Shown here piece by piece: positions 6,325-49,252 of a stretch of DNA of 53,030 nucleotides. Within the stretch, counting starts at the first letter, position 1. Each line of letters opens with the position of its first letter. This stretch comes from a virus: IMG/VR virus record IMGVR_UViG_3300012971_000007, positions 1 through 53,030 of that record; one strand, written 5' to 3'. The notes beneath the pieces are model-generated. The model searched no databases and was not told the DNA's origin. It was given only the letters and a program-made list of their open reading frames with translations. The translations under genes were made by a program, and so were the position numbers.

Positions 6325-6353
6325 GTGCAGGGTACGCCTCTCGCATTGGCGTG
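6325..6353 (+). promoter_or_regulatory. Late intergenic cassette copy 2
   Basis: GTGCAGGGTA-cgcctctc-GCATTGGCGTG. The terminal GTG (6351) is the scaffold gene start. Confidence 0.6.
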
Positions 6354-7487
6354 GGAGACACCCAAGGAGACGCGCCAGCAGCCGCTACCACCGGCAGCGG
6401 CGAAGGGACACCCGATAGCGGCACGCCGCCGGCAGGCGACGCGCCCGACACGCAGGGAGGCGCGGCGCCAGGCGGGACTCATAATCCCGCAGACACGGGT
6501 TCGACTCCCGCCCCTGCTACCGAAGGCGGCGACAAGCCGCCGGAGACCAGCACCAAGGGCAAGGCGGGCAAGGCGAAGCCGGCCGAGCCGTCGGCCAGAT
6601 CTGGCCCAGATCTGACCCGCCGACTGGCGGACATGTCGAGAGACAACCGGGAACACCGGAAGGCGCTCGCGGATACGACCAGGGAGCTTGAATCCGCTCA
6701 TCAGCGGTTGGCGGACTTCGACGGTCTGATCAAACGCTCCCAGGCGGGCGACGGCGCGGCGATCGAGGAGATCTACAACCGGTTCGGCCTGTCGTTCGAG
6801 AAGATCGTCGACTACCACGCCGGCAAGCCGGATCCGACGCCCGAGCAGGCCCGCGATGCGGAAGTCGCCGCCCTGCGGGCCGAGCTGAAGGCTGACAAGG
6901 AAGCCCGCCAGCAGGAGCAGCAGCAAGCCCAGCAGGCGATGGCACAACAGCGCGAAGCCGCCGCCCGCGCGGAGTATGTAGGTATGTGCGGCCAACACAT
7001 CAAGGCCGCGGGGGACCAGGCCGAAATCTGCGGGCGTCTTGGCGACGAAGCCGCGGAGGCGGTCTTCGGCAAGGTGATCAAGGCGTGGGGTGATGCCGGC
7101 CGTCCCGAGCTGATGCCGGGCGAGCTGGAAGAGGCGATCGACAAGGCGATCGAGGTGCAGGAGCTGGAGTACGAGAAGCGCGGACAGCTTCTCGTGAAAA
7201 AGCTCAACGGCACGAATGGCACCAACGGTCACGCCAACGGCGCCGCGAAAACTTCTGATCTTCCAGCCGGCTTGACCGGCGGGAAATTGAGCGACACGGA
7301 CGAAACCATCCTGAACGGGCTCATAGACAAGTCGGCCCCCGGGGAGAAATCGCAACGCGCGAAGCCCCGGTCAATCAGCAGCCAGATGGGGGGCTCGGCG
7401 CCGCCGAAGACCGCCCCACGCGGAGGCATGGACGCCCGCGAGGCCCTACGGGCCACCCTCGCGGACTTCAACCTCACCCCGCGCTGA
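6351..7487 (+). CDS. Scaffolding protein (putative)
   Basis: 378 aa with a low-complexity N-terminus and charged, helical repeats of the QQEQQQAQQAMAQQREAAARAEY type. It lies immediately upstream of the capsid gene. Confidence 0.65.
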   Translation: MGDTQGDAPAAATTGSGEGTPDSGTPPAGDAPDTQGGAAPGGTHNPADTGSTPAPATEGGDKPPETSTKGKAGKAKPAEPSARSGPDLTRRLADMSRDNREHRKALADTTRELESAHQRLADFDGLIKRSQAGDGAAIEEIYNRFGLSFEKIVDYHAGKPDPTPEQARDAEVAALRAELKADKEARQQEQQQAQQAMAQQREAAARAEYVGMCGQHIKAAGDQAEICGRLGDEAAEAVFGKVIKAWGDAGRPELMPGELEEAIDKAIEVQELEYEKRGQLLVKKLNGTNGTNGHANGAAKTSDLPAGLTGGKLSDTDETILNGLIDKSAPGEKSQRAKPRSISSQMGGSAPPKTAPRGGMDAREALRATLADFNLTPR

Positions 7488-26520: not shown

Positions 26521-27074
26521 GTGACTTCACCGACCGGCTGATGTTCGAGGCCCGGAAGATGCTCGGGGTGCGTGAAGAGGGCGGCGCGAACCGGGGCACG
26601 ATGATCGACATCTGGAACCGGGAAGCCGGGGCCCCGGTCGGCTCGCCCTGGTGCGCCTCCTTTGTCCACGCCATGCACAAGGCGGCATCGGACTACCTCG
26701 GGATCTTCAATCCCTGCCCCCGGACTGCTTCGACGCACGCCCTATGGACAATGGCAGATCCGGCTAGCAAGTCATCGCTCCCTGCGCCTGGTGACGTGTT
26801 CGTGGTCGACCATGGCCTGGACGCCGAAGGCAATCGGATCGGCCACTGCGGGATTGTCATCGCCGTGACGCCGGATGGTCAGACGATCGTGTCGATCGAA
26901 GGCAACACGAACGCCGCCGGCAGCCGAGAAGGGGATAGCGTCGCCCAGCACACCTGGCGCCCCCGTGACGGGAAGCGCGGCACGCTGCTGGGATACATCG
27001 CCTTCGATCCTGGCCAGGCGCCCGCCGATCCGGAAGCGAAAGACGATGCCCAAGCCCACGGGGAAACAACCTGA
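26517..27074 (+). CDS. Endolysin, CHAP / NlpC-P60-type peptidoglycan hydrolase
   Basis: Contains GGANRGTMIDIWN...GSPWCASFV...GHCGIVIAV...IEGNTN, with the catalytic Cys and His in their usual contexts. Confidence 0.75.
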   Translation: MSDFTDRLMFEARKMLGVREEGGANRGTMIDIWNREAGAPVGSPWCASFVHAMHKAASDYLGIFNPCPRTASTHALWTMADPASKSSLPAPGDVFVVDHGLDAEGNRIGHCGIVIAVTPDGQTIVSIEGNTNAAGSREGDSVAQHTWRPRDGKRGTLLGYIAFDPGQAPADPEAKDDAQAHGETT

Positions 27075-27291
27075 CGATCCATTTGGGCCGGAAGAAGCGA
27101 CCGTCGTAGAGCTACGCCCGGACGACTACGACACCCCGCCATCCGTCCCCCGCTGCACCGAATGCGGCGCGATCGTTTTCGTGGACGACTACGAGACGAT
27201 AGAGTTTCCCAACGACCGCTGCTTGCGCTCGCGCACCGAAACCTGGCATTGGTGCTGCAAGCTGCGCAAGTCGGTAACGTTCGTCCGGTAG
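27046..27291 (+). CDS. Small Cys-containing protein (81 aa), uncertain
   Basis: ATG 27046 is in frame with track ORF 26875-27291. It has CTECG...WHWCC and overlaps the endolysin end by 29 nt. Confidence 0.4.
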   Translation: MPKPTGKQPDDPFGPEEATVVELRPDDYDTPPSVPRCTECGAIVFVDDYETIEFPNDRCLRSRTETWHWCCKLRKSVTFVR

Positions 27292-27292
27292 G

Positions 27293-27376
27293 AGGAGGGT
27301 GGAGGAAATCGAATCCCGGTCTGTCGACCCCATGCCGGGTTTCGGGTCCGGCTGCGCCACCAGGCGCGGCACCCTC
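27293..27376 (-). tRNA. Non-canonical class-II tRNA-like gene (8-bp acceptor, D-stem with tetraloop, long variable arm; anticodon position CGA)
   Basis: Manual fold of the minus strand. Acceptor: GGAGGGUG/CACCCUCC. D arm: GCGCC-UGGU-GGCGC. Anticodon arm: GCCGG(A)-CCCGAAA-(C)CCGGC. Variable arm: GGUC-GACA-GACC. T arm: GGGA-UUCGAUU-UCCU. Confidence 0.4.
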
Positions 27377-27416
27377 CAGGTGCCTAGCGCCGGGATGACG
27401 ACGAAAAGATGTGCCC

Positions 27417-27444
27417 GAACAAAAGGCGCGCTGCGGTTTTCGCG
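27417..27444 (-). terminator. Weak intrinsic-terminator-like hairpin plus T-tract; competes with the permuted-tRNA trailer helix
   Basis: The minus strand reads GCGCG-AAAACCGCAG-CGCGC-C-TTTTGTT. Confidence 0.25.
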
Positions 27445-27518
27445 CTCTGCCACTGAGCTACGGCCGCCCCAACGGGGCGTCCGGCCGGGATCGAACCGGC
27501 GACCTCGACCATGCAAGG
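27439..27518 (-). ncRNA. Circularly permuted tRNA-like unit: 3' half (27518-27475), 8-nt linker, 5' half (27466-27439)
   Basis: The 3' piece is CC-CUUGCAU-GGUCG-AGGUC-GCCGG-UUCGAUC-CCGGC-CGGACGC-C. The 5' piece is GCGGCCG-UA-GCUC-AGUGGCA-GAGC-G-CGA. The acceptor strands pair 6/7. Confidence 0.4.
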
Positions 27519-27555
27519 GTAACGCAACACAAGCGGCTCAGGCACGGACAGCAGT

Positions 27556-27816: not shown

Positions 27817-27819
27817 CGA

Positions 27820-27886
27820 GCCCGCCCCCGGAGTCGAACCGAGCGCCTCAGGACACAAACCCCAGGCGGCAGCCAGCGCGGCGGGC
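27820..27886 (-). tRNA. 67-nt tRNA-like gene with a reduced D arm (anticodon position UGU, Thr-type)
   Basis: Perfect 7-bp acceptor GCCCGCC/GGCGGGC and canonical T arm CUCGG-UUCGACU-CCGGG. The anticodon loop is UUUGUGU. Only 13 nt are available for the D region. Confidence 0.4.
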
Positions 27887-40557: not shown

Positions 40558-40743
40558 ATGGGCCTCGGTAAGATGTTGCGCGACTGGTGGCACTGGAATG
40601 GCGTGTCTCGTTGCTGGACCTGTCGCCGCTTCTTCTGGACACACGCCTTTTGGAATCCATGGGGCCCGGGGCGCGGCCCTGGGCTTTGCTGTTCCGAGGA
40701 ATGCTGTAACCGAGTCAGGCCCAGAGAGGAGACGGTAGGGTGA
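40558..40743 (+). CDS. Trp/Cys-rich small protein (61 aa)
   Basis: Track ORF. Contains WWHWNGVSRCWTCRRFFW...CCSEECC. Confidence 0.45.
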   Translation: MGLGKMLRDWWHWNGVSRCWTCRRFFWTHAFWNPWGPGRGPGLCCSEECCNRVRPREETVG

Positions 40744-41612
40744 GCGACGAGGTACGGCTAGCTGGACGTCGGGTTGTCGCCAGCATTTCAGGCGGCAAGG
40801 ATTCGGCCGCTCTTTCGCTCTGGCTGACAGAGCAGGGCATCGAGCACGATCGGGTCTTTGCTGACACGGGCTGGGAGCATTCGGCGACCTATGAATATCT
40901 GCGCGGCCCGCTGACGGCAAAGCTTGGACCGATTGCCGAGGTGAAAGGCCGCGACGGCGGAATGGTGCCGCTGATCCAGCGCAAGAAATTGTTCCCCTCT
41001 CGGTTGATCCGGTTCTGCACCGAGGAACTCAAGGTGATGCCACTGGCCGAGTACGTGCGCCAGCGTCAGGATCAATACGGCGAAGTCGTCAACGCCGTCG
41101 GAATCCGTGCCGCCGAATCGGAGGCCCGCGCCAAGCTGACAGAGTGGGAATGGTCGGACGCCTTCGACTGCTATGTCTGGCGACCGCTGCTGGCCTGGAC
41201 CGAGCAGGATGTGATCGACATCCACCGCCGTCACGGGCTGGCGCCGAATCCGCTCTATCTTCGCGGCGCAACCCGTGTCGGCTGCTGGCCCTGTATCTTC
41301 GCTCGGAAGGCCGAGATCAAGCTTGTGGCCGAGCTATCGCCCGAACGCATCGACGCGATACGCGAACTCGAACTCTCATTGCCTCCCATGGCTCCGACGG
41401 ACGAGCATCCCGCGCCGCTGCCGCGTACCTACTTCCACGGCAAGACAACGCGCGAAGGGATGCCGCATCCCATCGACGAAGTTGTCGAATGGAGCCGCAC
41501 GGCCCGAGGCGGCAAGCAATTCCTGCTGCTGGACACTGAACCGCCCGGCTGCATCCGCTGGGGCCTTTGCGAATCCCATCCCACCCCCAAGAAAGCCGAG
41601 AGCCATGAGTGA
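40740..41612 (+). CDS. PP-loop ATP pyrophosphatase, PAPS-reductase / DndC-IbrA-like family
   Basis: Contains SGGKDS (PP-loop), FADTGWEHSATYEY, GIRAAESEARA and NPLYLRGATRVGCWPC. Confidence 0.85.
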   Translation: MSDEVRLAGRRVVASISGGKDSAALSLWLTEQGIEHDRVFADTGWEHSATYEYLRGPLTAKLGPIAEVKGRDGGMVPLIQRKKLFPSRLIRFCTEELKVMPLAEYVRQRQDQYGEVVNAVGIRAAESEARAKLTEWEWSDAFDCYVWRPLLAWTEQDVIDIHRRHGLAPNPLYLRGATRVGCWPCIFARKAEIKLVAELSPERIDAIRELELSLPPMAPTDEHPAPLPRTYFHGKTTREGMPHPIDEVVEWSRTARGGKQFLLLDTEPPGCIRWGLCESHPTPKKAESHE

Positions 41613-43137: not shown

Positions 43138-44382
43138 TTGCCCCTTCCGGGGTCTTCGGACTTCCTAGTAGTTTCCCATGGGTCCGTGCCCCCCAGAGTC
43201 CGAAGGATCGCAGGTGCGCTTGTGCTGACGTCGCTGGCCAGCGTCACGGCTGCGTACGAATCCGCTGCGGCGCAGATCGTACAACTTCGCCAGTCGCTAG
43301 ATGAGTCGTACGACGAGAACAAAGAGCTGCGGCGAACGGTTGCCAGTCAGGGCCGGCTGCTGTCGAGGCTCGCGTCGGAGACGTCACCGACGGCGCCAAG
43401 CATCAACTGTGTCTACTGGCTGTATTCAGAAGCCCGCCGGCACGAGCGATCCTGGGATCACGTCTGGCAGCGGGTGACGCCGCTGCTGCGACGATACGGC
43501 GAGCTGCCCGCGCCTGAGTTGAACCCAGTGCGCTGGGAACAACACCGGGCGATCCGCCGGCTGGAACCAGATCGGCGCGGGGCGATGCCGCACGAGTACA
43601 CGCTGAACATCGAGCTGACCAGGGCCAAGGAGATGCTCAACTGGGCGGTTGCGAACGGGATGATCCTGTTCAATCCCCTGGCGCCGGCCAGGAACGTCAG
43701 GACGGTATGCGAACGAGAGACTCGGCTACGCTCGGATGACGTCGACCGGCTGCTGCGAGCCTGCGCGGCACTGAAGGACGAGCGGCGCGGGAAGGACGAC
43801 GGGAGACGGGCGGCGCTGCTGCGCGCCTTCGTGCTCTGCTGCTTCGACAGCATGCTCCGGTTCAATGAGGCCCGACACCTGCGGCGGGACCTGATTGGGA
43901 AGGACGGGATCTACACGCTGTCCTGGACCACGACGAAGAACCGGAAGGCGCGGACGGTGGTGCTGACGCCCAGGACGCTGGCGGCGATCGAAGCCGTTCA
44001 ACCGACCCCCGGGACAAATTACGTATTCGCCAGTAACGACACGGGAATCCTGATCGGGGAGACGTTCTTCCGCCGGTTCTTCCGTCGGGCCTGTAAGGCG
44101 TCCGGGATCGACGCGCGCTGTGCGCCAGGCGATCGGCGGATCGTCGTCCATCACCTGCGCCATGCCGGGGCGTCCGAAGCCGACGAAGCCGGAGCCCGGC
44201 CTGGCGCCATCAAAGACGCCCTCGGCCATTCCCGCCTGGCCACGACCGAGAAGTACCTACATCGGGAACGGACGGAGAGCGCCAGACATGTTGCCGAGCG
44301 GATGGTGGCCGCTGCCGGTCGCCGGCCACCCCAGCGAGCAAAACGGAAGGCTGGGCACAAGAAACTGGCGAAAGATTCTTGA
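43138..44382 (+). CDS. int: Tyrosine recombinase / integrase (start uncertain)
   Basis: Contains MLRFNEARHL (Arg), VVHHLRHAG (HxxR) and LGHSRLATTEKYLH (His...Tyr). The track start is a TTG. Confidence 0.85.
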   Translation: MPLPGSSDFLVVSHGSVPPRVRRIAGALVLTSLASVTAAYESAAAQIVQLRQSLDESYDENKELRRTVASQGRLLSRLASETSPTAPSINCVYWLYSEARRHERSWDHVWQRVTPLLRRYGELPAPELNPVRWEQHRAIRRLEPDRRGAMPHEYTLNIELTRAKEMLNWAVANGMILFNPLAPARNVRTVCERETRLRSDDVDRLLRACAALKDERRGKDDGRRAALLRAFVLCCFDSMLRFNEARHLRRDLIGKDGIYTLSWTTTKNRKARTVVLTPRTLAAIEAVQPTPGTNYVFASNDTGILIGETFFRRFFRRACKASGIDARCAPGDRRIVVHHLRHAGASEADEAGARPGAIKDALGHSRLATTEKYLHRERTESARHVAERMVAAAGRRPPQRAKRKAGHKKLAKDS

Positions 44383-48033: not shown

Positions 48034-48650
48034 TGGTGATGATCGCCAACGTAACGGGCCACGAAGTCGGCGCGCTGATGGTGATGTATCCCGGCAGCCT
48101 GGGCCACCTCTATTCACCCGGAAAAGGGCGCGCGAAGATTTACGACTGGCAGCCATACGCACTGGATAACAAGTGCTTCCCGAAGGGGGAAGACTTCGAC
48201 GTCGCGGAATGGCGCGAGATGTTGCGATGGGCGTGCCTGTCGGGCGTGGAACCGCTCTGGGTGTTGGTTCCCGATTGGCCGTACAGCGCGGAACGCACAC
48301 TGGATCGGTGGAAGGAATTCTACCCGGAGGTCGCGCGCTATGGATTCCGACCAGCGTTCGCCGCACAGGACGGCATGACCTTCGCTGACGTTCCCGCTGA
48401 GGCGCACACGGTTTTTCTAGGAGGCGGCGACGACTGGAAGGATGCGGCGATTAGACCGTGGTGCGCCGCCTTCCCAGGGCGCGTTCACGTCGGGCGCGTC
48501 AATGGATCGGAGCGGCTATTGGCAGCCCATCACGCTGGAGCTGTTTCGGTCGACGGGAGCGGCTGGTTCACGAAGCACAACAACAAGCAGGGTGGGCAGT
48601 GGGGCGTGTTGATGAAGTACGTTCGCGAGACAGGCAGGCGCGCATCGTGA
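48033..48650 (+). CDS. Possible DpdA-like (TGT-fold) DNA transglycosylase; the function is tentative
   Basis: 205 aa translationally coupled to queE (GTGA). The segments VFLGGGDDWK and VSVDGSGWF are reminiscent of TGT-like proteins. The call rests mainly on context. Confidence 0.45.
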   Translation: MVMIANVTGHEVGALMVMYPGSLGHLYSPGKGRAKIYDWQPYALDNKCFPKGEDFDVAEWREMLRWACLSGVEPLWVLVPDWPYSAERTLDRWKEFYPEVARYGFRPAFAAQDGMTFADVPAEAHTVFLGGGDDWKDAAIRPWCAAFPGRVHVGRVNGSERLLAAHHAGAVSVDGSGWFTKHNNKQGGQWGVLMKYVRETGRRAS

Positions 48651-49252
48651 AGTACCCGATCACCTCCATCTTCCGCAGCCTACAAGGTGAAGGGCATTTC
48701 GTCGGCTATCCCACAACGTTCGTCCGCTTCGCTGGCTGTTCGGTAATGGAGTGCGGGATCCGATCGGTCTGCGACGAAGCGCCCTGGAAGGCGACGCAGA
48801 CACTGACAGCGGCAGAGATTGTTCACTGCGTCCGAAAAGAATGCCCAGCCGGGATAGTCTGCCTGACCGGCGGCGAACCGAGCGATCACGATCTGATCCC
48901 GGTCATCGACGCGCTTACCGAAGCGAAGTTCCGCGTCCACATCGAAACGAGTGGCATTCGCGAACTGCCAGGAATCCCGATCGAGTGGATCACGGTGTCA
49001 CCGAAGACCGCCGTCTTCCACCAGCGCATCGGACACGCGCTGAAGATCGTCGTGACACCCGGAATGGACTGGGGACAGATCCAGGCGCGCGACGAGAACA
49101 CGGCGTTCTTTCACCGTTACCTGCAACCGATGATGATGCCGGACGGGCACACGAACATCGCTGACGTAATCGCGATGCTGCAATCCTGGGATAACTACCA
49201 GGGACGTTGGGCACTCTCGACACAGGCACACAAGACGTGGGGCGTGATGTGA
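48647..49252 (+). CDS. queE: 7-carboxy-7-deazaguanine synthase (radical SAM QueE)
   Basis: Contains YPITSIFRSLQGEGHFVGYPTTFVRFAGC, CLTGGEP, HIETSG, WITVSPK and LSTQAHKTWGV, which line up with the recalled E. coli QueE sequence. Confidence 0.85.
   Translation: MKYPITSIFRSLQGEGHFVGYPTTFVRFAGCSVMECGIRSVCDEAPWKATQTLTAAEIVHCVRKECPAGIVCLTGGEPSDHDLIPVIDALTEAKFRVHIETSGIRELPGIPIEWITVSPKTAVFHQRIGHALKIVVTPGMDWGQIQARDENTAFFHRYLQPMMMPDGHTNIADVIAMLQSWDNYQGRWALSTQAHKTWGVM

Follow-up and report, generated by a model that had tools for sequence, protein, structure and literature searches.

We identified an 84-nt element on the minus strand of a phage sequence of 53,030 nt (IMG/VR record IMGVR_UViG_3300012971_000007; this whole stretch is called the window below) as what may well be a genuine phage-encoded tRNA gene of the 8/4 class, whose members resemble selenocysteine tRNA (tRNA-Sec) and combine an 8-bp acceptor stem with a 4-bp T stem. 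This structural reading is supported by the sequence, its computed fold and covariance-model comparisons. The class itself is already described, and the small new features of the element are a bulge on the 3' side, a C at position 33 and an A.C pair that closes the anticodon loop. The best reading of the element is a serine tRNA with the anticodon CGA, charged by the host seryl-tRNA synthetase (SerRS) and possibly hardened against anticodon nucleases. Judging from its sequence, it may well be a functional phage tRNA-Ser(CGA) of the known Sec-like 8/4 class.

Read from position 27377 to 27294, the minus-strand RNA is GGAGGGUG-CC-GCGCC-UGGU-GGCGC-A-GCCGG-A-CCCGAAA-C-CCGGC-AUGG-GGUC-GACA-GACC-GGGA-UUCGAUU-UCCU-C-CACCCUCC. 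The acceptor stem consists of eight Watson-Crick pairs, starting with G1:C, G2:C and A3:U, and the D stem would reach six layers if its outer C.A were counted. The anticodon stem has five Watson-Crick pairs and an A.C mismatch (A31.C39) at the sixth position; alternatively, it can be drawn as a 5-bp stem with a 9-nt loop. The distance from the anticodon stem to the T stem is 16 nt (AUGG and the variable arm); a long variable arm is present, though it is short for the 8/4 class. Taken together, the stems hold 25 Watson-Crick pairs and one G.U pair (26 pairs) with no mismatch inside them, and the elbow keeps its signature, with GG in the D loop and a T loop of UUCGAUU. Every stem and loop listed in the original prediction was found on the minus strand, but the span given there (27293-27376) was one base off and is in fact 27294-27377. 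The unpaired C (27302), the discriminator U (27293) and the CC-U tail come in addition to the features listed there.

The minimum free energy (MFE) structure of the 84-mer was exactly the cloverleaf (−43.6 kcal/mol, z = −2.9), and 2 of 200 shuffled sequences were equally stable. In the Rfam search with E-value reporting, tRNA-Sec (RF01852; curated gathering cut-off: 47 bits) was the top match in the window: it covered the full length of the model (positions 1-91) with 40.6 bits. The E-value was 3.3e-6 when the local region was searched and 9.8e-5 over both strands of all 53 kb. Because overlapping matches of the same clan were reduced to the best one, the element was reported as tRNA-Sec and not as tRNA (RF00005). 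ARAGORN with its threshold lowered to 90% (-ps90) called a tRNA-Ser(cga) and drew the 8-bp acceptor stem. A loop-and-spacing pattern derived from the element matched once in the window, at the element itself, and in none of 100 shuffles. From the MFE fold, the full-length tRNA-Sec match and the relaxed ARAGORN call we conclude that this is a real tRNA-shaped sequence. A chance fold in GC-rich DNA is ruled out by the E-value and the shuffles. Likewise, the element is not part of a protein gene, since no gene was called there in other assemblies of the same phage and the overlapping open reading frames (ORFs) have no third-position GC signal.

The original prediction had proposed a class-II tRNA-like gene with tRNA-Sec or allo-tRNA (8/4) geometry, unlike an ordinary Ser or Leu tRNA, and a tRNA finder and covariance models both bear this out: tRNA-Sec is the best Rfam family, the score lies in the range of allo-like tRNAs, the nearest relatives found with a covariance model agree, and ARAGORN calls the 8-bp acceptor. 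With RF01852, a genuine tRNA-Sec-type gene (L210; ARAGORN anticodon UAA) scored 65 bits, and allo-like and 8/4 tRNAs from Bryobacterales, Pyrinomonadaceae and an IMG/VR phage scored 33-55 bits, a band that includes the element. We also built a covariance model (R1) from the element alone and ran it over all 342 loci fetched. Its best match was an allo-like tRNA of Bryobacterales (L211), followed by genuine selC genes and several IMG/VR phage loci (Table 1). Three of these phage loci (L115, L020 and L276) fold as clean 8/4 tRNA-Ser and align stem for stem with the element; L276 and the element have GGAGGGU at acceptor positions 1-7 and the CC linker in common.

In a model-guided alignment of 13 sequences, 94.3% of the cells pair and 23 of the 26 pairs are changed on both sides; when the partners were slid by 1-3 columns as a control, pairing dropped to 44-53%. 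Since the alignment was produced by fitting to the model and contains both 7/5 and 8/4 tRNAs, the compensatory changes support the structure at the level of the family only. The column of the unpaired C is empty in the clean 8/4 relatives, which shows that the element is an 8/4 tRNA plus one 3'-side bulge. Two related tRNA-like sequences from IMG/VR (L047 and L101) share the 8-bp acceptor and the 4-bp T stem, and in both a single bulged A sits where the window has its unpaired C.

The known system closest in kind is the phage 8/4 tRNA-Ser. Allo-tRNAs of the 8/4 and 9/3 types turned up as false positives in searches for tRNA-Sec, and 8/4 tRNA-Ser were described from bacteriophages, with G73 or U73 and a long variable arm that make SerRS identity likely (Mukai et al. 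2017, NAR 45:2776; PMC5389517). The element shares the 8-bp acceptor and the 4-bp T stem (8 + 4 = 12 pairs, plus one extra junction C), the long Sec-like D stem with the tetraloop UGGU and a pyrimidine at position 20, the extra arm, the Ser anticodon, a SerRS-compatible discriminator (here U), the location on a phage and the sub-threshold match to tRNA-Sec. It differs in several respects. Bulged 8/4 variants were published with A51a in the 5' strand of the T stem (PMC5389517), whereas the extra C of the element lies at the junction of the T stem and the 3' acceptor strand. Position 33 is C and not U, the sixth anticodon-stem pair is an A.C mismatch, and degenerate tRNA-like neighbors take the place of an accompanying 8/4 tRNA-His or tRNA array. 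The published phage examples were attributed to α-proteobacterial phages (PMC5389517).

The acidobacterial allo-tRNA L211 has acceptor positions 1-6 (GGAGGG) identical to the element, a D arm of the NNGCC-UGGU-GGCNN type, an A after the D stem and a short extra arm. Unlike the element with its cognate Ser anticodon, it has an amber anticodon (CUA) with U33; its acceptor stem is 9 bp long, its T stem has 3-4 bp and no bulge, and it is chromosomal in a bacterial metagenome-assembled genome (MAG), whereas the element is phage-borne. The element also departs from canonical class-II tRNA-Ser (7/5) by its 8/4 geometry and compact D arm, and ARAGORN in its default mode does not see it.

Table 1 Features of the element, tRNA-derived neighbors and loci used for comparison
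Feature	Position	Strand	Details
Putative tRNA-Sec-like, 8/4-type tRNA-Ser(CGA) gene, whole	27294..27377	minus	84 nt, G1 to last acceptor base; RF01852 match, MFE cloverleaf, ARAGORN -ps90
Acceptor stem, 5' strand GGAGGGUG	27370..27377	minus	pairs with CACCCUCC at 27294-27301; sequence, fold, ARAGORN drawing
CC linker between acceptor stem and D arm	27368-27369	minus	sequence
D arm GCGCC-UGGU-GGCGC	27354..27367	minus	5-bp stem, 4-nt loop; G18 and G19 present, Y20 = U
Anticodon arm GCCGG(A)-CCCGAAA-(C)CCGGC	27334..27352	minus	sequence, Rfam alignment, fold, ARAGORN
C33	27345	minus	sequence
Anticodon CGA	27342-27344	minus	sequence
Variable (extra) arm GGUC-GACA-GACC	27318..27329	minus	preceded by AUGG at 27330-27333; sequence, fold
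T arm GGGA-UUCGAUU-UCCU	27303..27317	minus	4-bp stem including one G.U pair, canonical loop
Single unpaired C, junction of T stem and 3' acceptor strand	27302	minus	bulge, or C.C mismatch if read as fifth T-stem layer
3' tail U-C-C	27291..27293	minus	discriminator U73 (27293), then CC; next base U
tRNA-derived region	27403..27546	minus	T arm, closed acceptor-like hairpin and D arm inside 10-bp and 9-bp long-range stems; U-rich tract follows
Irregular tRNA-like element, ARAGORN tRNA-Thr(UGU)	27818..27886	minus	fills exactly the 70-nt gap between 83-aa and 86-aa ORFs
C33 tRNA-Ser(CGA), Pyrinomonadaceae arrays	L176:1064-1152; L194:320-408; L207:6625-6714		
Further phage loci with C33 tRNA-Ser	L225/L275, L237/L246/L253, L327; L265, L330		
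Bryobacterales allo-like tRNA(CUA)	L211:4320-4402		R1 45.7 bits (best); RF01852 55.5 bits
Bryobacterales	L187		RF01852 49.1 bits
Pyrinomonadaceae	L193		RF01852 49.8 bits
Pyrinomonadaceae	L176		RF01852 45, 37 and 34 bits
Genuine selC genes			R1 39-43 bits
IMG/VR phage, clean 8/4 tRNA-Ser	L115:5382-5464		R1 39.7 bits; anticodon UGA (folding)
IMG/VR phage	L016		R1 37.8 bits; RF01852 33 bits
IMG/VR phage	L307		R1 37.4 bits
IMG/VR phage, clean 8/4 tRNA-Ser	L020:1421-1502		R1 34.9 bits; anticodon AGA (folding)
IMG/VR phage, clean 8/4 tRNA-Ser	L276:1811-1892		R1 32 bits; anticodon UGA (folding)

The serine reading is suggested by the anticodon and by the identity elements. The anticodon CGA reads UCG, which is the commonest Ser codon of the phage (215 of 555 Ser codons, 38.7%, in 22 phage genes). 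By what is established on SerRS recognition, the opening acceptor pairs of the element (G:C, G:C, A:U), its extra arm and its elbow nucleotides all agree with tRNA-Ser and tRNA-Sec identity. If the element acts as a serine tRNA, transcription would reach it at the 3' end of the operon of small genes on the minus strand, RNase P and 3' nucleases would excise it, and the host would finish its CCA end. Host SerRS would then charge it with serine through the extra arm and the pairs G1:C72, G2:C71 and A3:U70, not through the anticodon, and the charged tRNA would decode UCG. The loop with C33 and A31.C39 would be a tolerated or selected variant, one option being that it makes a poor substrate for host anticodon-loop nucleases. 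The recoding suggested in the original prediction is unnecessary, because a tRNA of Ser identity that carries a Ser anticodon decodes in the usual way.

Several observations weigh against a functional serine tRNA. At the curated Rfam thresholds there was no match over the whole window, the element scoring below the cut-off, and ARAGORN in its default mode missed it and reported just two other candidates in the window. The canonical U-turn base is missing from the anticodon loop, in which there is no U at all, and the loop is closed by the A.C mismatch. The T stem is weak, with four pairs, one of them G.U, followed by the unpaired C; the discriminator is U and not the G usual for tRNA-Ser, and CCA is not fully encoded, the gene running on as CC-U. 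Its degenerate tRNA-like neighbors fit a decaying tRNA cluster, and no promoter or terminator was found near the element by consensus prediction. Furthermore, the matching position and its surroundings hold no tRNA-like RNA in phages related through the flanking lysin (55-63% identity) or through the DUF932 protein (66-72%). Finally, no divergent orthologue was found, so that covariation in the lineage is not available.

The copies of the phage that we did find are nearly identical. Parts of the region recur at 99.98-100% identity in five other contigs, which come from four or more additional samples (ENA, Logan and JGI). Three of them, L001, L002 and L220 (at least three samples), cover the whole element without a difference from the window there, and L220 differs from the window in one of 6252 aligned bases. 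As the copies do not vary over the element, the lineage offers no covariation. Look-ups of exact proteins returned the near-identical copies (99.98-100%) and nothing else, and a search of IMG/VR by the neighboring proteins gave no close relative. Scans of IMG/VR with degenerate loop-and-spacing patterns returned tRNA-Leu, canonical tRNA-Ser and other irregular tRNAs and no homologue. The pattern scan of the GTDB genomes yielded tRNA-Sec(CUA) genes and a few allo-like tRNAs and no orthologue. In the JGI metagenomes, the same kind of scan returned 30 genuine selC genes and two chance matches and no orthologue; this collection was incomplete, as the JGI contig Ga0126383_10002333 (L220) has a perfect match yet was absent from the output. 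The absence of orthologues in the JGI scan is therefore weak evidence.

U33 is near-invariant in tRNAs, and the original prediction had singled out C33 as an anomaly. This does not hold for phage and mobile-array genes, in which C33 recurs in tRNA-Ser. The identical loop CCCGAAA was found in unrelated tRNA-Ser(CGA) genes: in those of three diverged tRNA arrays of acidobacteria (Pyrinomonadaceae), genes that are called by ARAGORN and encode CCA, as well as in those of two IMG/VR phages (L226 and L271). Other phage Ser tRNAs have C33 in the loops CCUGAAA (anticodon UGA) and CCGGAAA (anticodon GGA). Overall, C33 occurred in 54 of the 1390 unique ARAGORN tRNA predictions from the fetched IMG/VR loci (3.9%), including 13 of 59 Val tRNAs, in a sample that is non-random and may include pseudogenes. 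Because of this recurrence, C33 is a weak argument against function in a phage, and it does not by itself indicate a loss of decoding, since the same loop occurs in normal array tRNA-Ser genes that encode CCA.

Phage tRNAs have been reported to carry changes in the anticodon loop that are predicted to evade anticodon nucleases, and tRNA-Ser(NGA) are targets of VapC (van den Berg et al. 2023, eLife; PMC10264068). By analogy, the C33 of the element possibly fits this nuclease-escape proposal, as it is a phage tRNA with an anticodon loop off the cellular consensus. A difference is that the mycobacteriophages of that study were reported to avoid encoding Ser(NGA) tRNAs, and a text search of the paper found no mention of position 33.

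Three further tRNA-derived pieces, two of which overlap, lie upstream of the tRNA on the same strand. In the region 27403-27546, the core of T arm, acceptor hairpin and D arm (27438-27508) matched the Y RNA family YrlA (RF02553) with 27.6 bits against a cut-off of 69, with only the tRNA-like core aligning, and positions 27476-27551 gave a weak tRNA(UGC)-like match (RF00005, 16.8 bits). The region folds into a Y-RNA-like outline, but with only a small margin over shuffled sequences (z = −1.5). Inspection by eye gave no exact instance of the YrlA motif GNCGAAN0-1G near the 5' end, and there was no TROVE protein among the large ORFs of the window. Tandem tRNAs are a documented source of false YrlA matches. 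A bona fide YrlA is thus unsupported here, given the score far under the cut-off, the fact that no Rsr gene was found and the known false matches; the region could be a divergent, Ro-less Y-like RNA or the remains of tandem tRNAs, and it may or may not form a functional unit with the tRNA. The third piece (27818-27886) has a 7-bp acceptor stem, a good acceptor/T minihelix, an anticodon helix of nine layers and a degenerate, nearly absent D arm; it gave no Rfam tRNA match at E ≤ 10, and its fold has z = −1.3. These neighbors can be read in two ways, either as a decaying tRNA cluster, which favors a pseudogene, or as a cassette of tRNA mimics.

A combination of tRNA array and YrlA has a precedent in Pyrinomonadaceae, though the version in the window does not qualify as YrlA. 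The MAG arrays L176:891-7023 (30 genes) and L193:3268-7995 (at least 18 genes) include several Sec-like members and have true YrlA genes beside them (58.6 bits in L176 and 71.9 bits in L193); in L176, an ORF of 518 aa encoding a Ro60-like protein lies between the tRNA array and the YrlA gene. Elsewhere in the window, positions 6451-6521 on the plus strand hold a tRNA-Met(CAU)-like sequence (RF00005, 26.2 bits; cut-off 29) with a 3-nt D loop and a 6-bp anticodon stem. It lies inside or just upstream of the ORF 6351-7487, and its acceptor and T regions resemble those of a Sec-like tRNA(CAU) of Pyrinomonadaceae (L176:4387-4467).

Of the alternatives to a functional serine tRNA, an unlikely though serious one is that the element is a non-decoding tRNA mimic, which acts with the adjacent Y-RNA-like and irregular tRNA-like elements as a decoy that a tRNA-targeting defence nuclease binds or cleaves instead of host tRNA-Ser, as a sponge for another tRNA-binding factor or as a processing signal for RNase P or RNase Z at the end of the operon. 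The lack of U33 and the A.C-closed anticodon loop, next to a perfect elbow of acceptor, T and D arms, would be expected of such an RNA, and so would the clustering with the YrlA-matching module of T arm, closed acceptor and D arm (27.6 bits) and with the irregular element that fills the gap between two ORFs. The co-occurrence of Sec-like tRNAs, tRNA arrays and bona fide YrlA beside a Ro60-like ORF in contigs of Pyrinomonadaceae points the same way. In addition, while many allo-tRNAs are active in translation in E. coli, some are reported as inactive and as linked with toxin-antitoxin loci (PMC5389517). However, the anticodon is sensible and matches the top Ser codon of the phage, the same C33 loop is present in otherwise normal, CCA-encoding tRNA-Ser genes within full arrays, and the ORFs scanned yielded no gene for Ro60/TROVE, RNA repair or a nuclease. 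The YrlA match is far under its cut-off and of a kind that remnants of tandem tRNAs are known to produce.

Equally improbable in our view is that the element is a young pseudogene which still folds and no longer functions, being either what is best preserved of a phage tRNA cluster in decay or an allo or Sec-like tRNA taken over from a host. The degenerate neighbors (the 16.8-bit and the ARAGORN-only tRNA-like elements and an orphan 5' half) are in keeping with this, and the defects of the element, namely C33, A31.C39, the unpaired C and the non-G discriminator, lie where first mutations would hurt most; its absence from the related phages examined and its score under the curated thresholds are also in line with decay. 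On the other hand, all 26 of 26 stem pairs are intact without an internal mismatch, the conserved loop signatures are kept, and other tRNA-Ser(CGA) genes, independent and to all appearance functional, have the C33 loop as well. The identity of the sequence across samples of different projects also speaks against a pseudogene, but this evidence is weak because the whole region is about 100% identical.

Somewhat more doubtful than either is a broader proposal in which the 84-nt RNA would be part of a phage tRNA-mimic cassette, together with the irregular tRNA-like element and a Ro-less Y-RNA-like module, and the loss of U33 would be adaptive and recurrent in phage tRNA-Ser(NGA), blunting host anticodon-loop nucleases.

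We rejected a very unlikely reading in which the phage integrase uses the element as its attP site, copied from a host tRNA gene. The window does encode a phage tyrosine integrase (43138-44382), and tRNA genes, selC included, are common integration targets. However, the element is a tRNA in full instead of a 3' fragment, and 16 kb separate it from the integrase gene. No bacterial tRNA from the genome and metagenome scans shares its 3' half, and no T-loop-like motif, the sole tRNA signature searched for, was found beside the integrase gene.

Hardly credible is a true tRNA-Sec, or an allo-tRNA that alters the meaning of a codon during infection by missense or nonsense recoding. The element does resemble bacterial tRNA-Sec in its best Rfam family, 8-bp acceptor stem, compact D arm with the UGGU loop, UUCGAUU T loop and G1-G2-A3 start, and in a 6-bp anticodon stem if the A.C is counted; moreover, tRNA-Sec with anticodons other than UCA exist, such as those with CUA in Geodermatophilaceae that the GTDB scan returned. 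But CGA in place of UCA is a serine anticodon, with which Ser charging gives standard decoding. The acceptor/T helix has 12 paired layers and an unpaired C that is at best a mismatched thirteenth, compared with the 13 bp (8/5 or 9/4) of tRNA-Sec, and the extra arm of 12 nt is much shorter than the ~20 nt of the 30 genuine selC genes retrieved. The discriminator is U instead of G, the 40.6 bits stay below the cut-off of 47 and the 65 bits of L210, and SelA, SelB, SelD and other Sec-pathway families were absent from the approximately 35 ORFs covered by a non-exhaustive scan. The anticodon, the length of the helix and the extra arm were the grounds on which a true tRNA-Sec was rejected. A tRNA-His-like reading with G-1:C73 was rejected on the anticodon and the tail sequence.

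The scans also returned natural variants with an amber anticodon. Genes for tRNA-Sec with the anticodon CUA are conserved across Geodermatophilaceae (L169-L215, in genomes of Geodermatophilus, Blastococcus, Modestobacter and Trujillonella); reportedly, these match a codon reassignment described by Mukai et al. in 2016. Allo-like tRNAs with the anticodon CUA and acceptor branches of the 8/4 or 9/3-4 type were found in Bryobacterales (L187:3533-3614 and L211) and in an IMG/VR phage (L016:1643-1718). From their sequences these three, of which L016 is on a viral contig, are potential natural amber suppressors.

The window is a phage genome of 65% GC that encodes a terminase, a portal protein, a tail spike, an HNH endonuclease, a CHAP lysin, a Sak4-like annealing protein, the tyrosine integrase and a QueE-like enzyme, all with weak database similarity, and blastn gave no DNA match among the phage records of GenBank. 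The tRNA gene sits in a 265-nt non-coding gap, at which the minus-strand operon of small genes (DUF932, DUF3846, an 83-aa ORF and an 86-aa zinc-ribbon ORF) and the plus-strand lysis genes meet in convergent orientation. The last plus-strand ORF (27046-27291) has its stop codon two bases beyond the tRNA and is overlapped by the 3' tail of the tRNA. The gene of the QueE-like radical-SAM enzyme (48458-49252, plus strand) and a PAPS-reductase-like gene (40740-41612, plus strand) may serve phage DNA modification, possibly of the 7-deazaguanine type, and are apparently unrelated to the tRNA.

To summarize, Sec-shaped 8/4 tRNA-Ser, so far known from a few metagenomic phages, now also occur in a temperate soil phage of 65% GC with almost no relatives in the databases, and default annotation tools miss such genes. 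Allo-type tRNAs serve as orthogonal scaffolds in genetic code expansion, and the new natural variants, with the 3'-side bulge and C33, have some value for this purpose. If the element is a decoy or a pseudogene, it would show the decay or repurposing of phage tRNA clusters. If tRNAs with C33 decode normally and yet resist anticodon nucleases, they would provide a concrete and easily tested case of the counter-defence proposed for phage tRNAs; and if the mimic-cassette reading is true, tRNAs with C33 would point to a counter-defence that is widespread and as yet undescribed, and that acts through resistant decoding or as a decoy.

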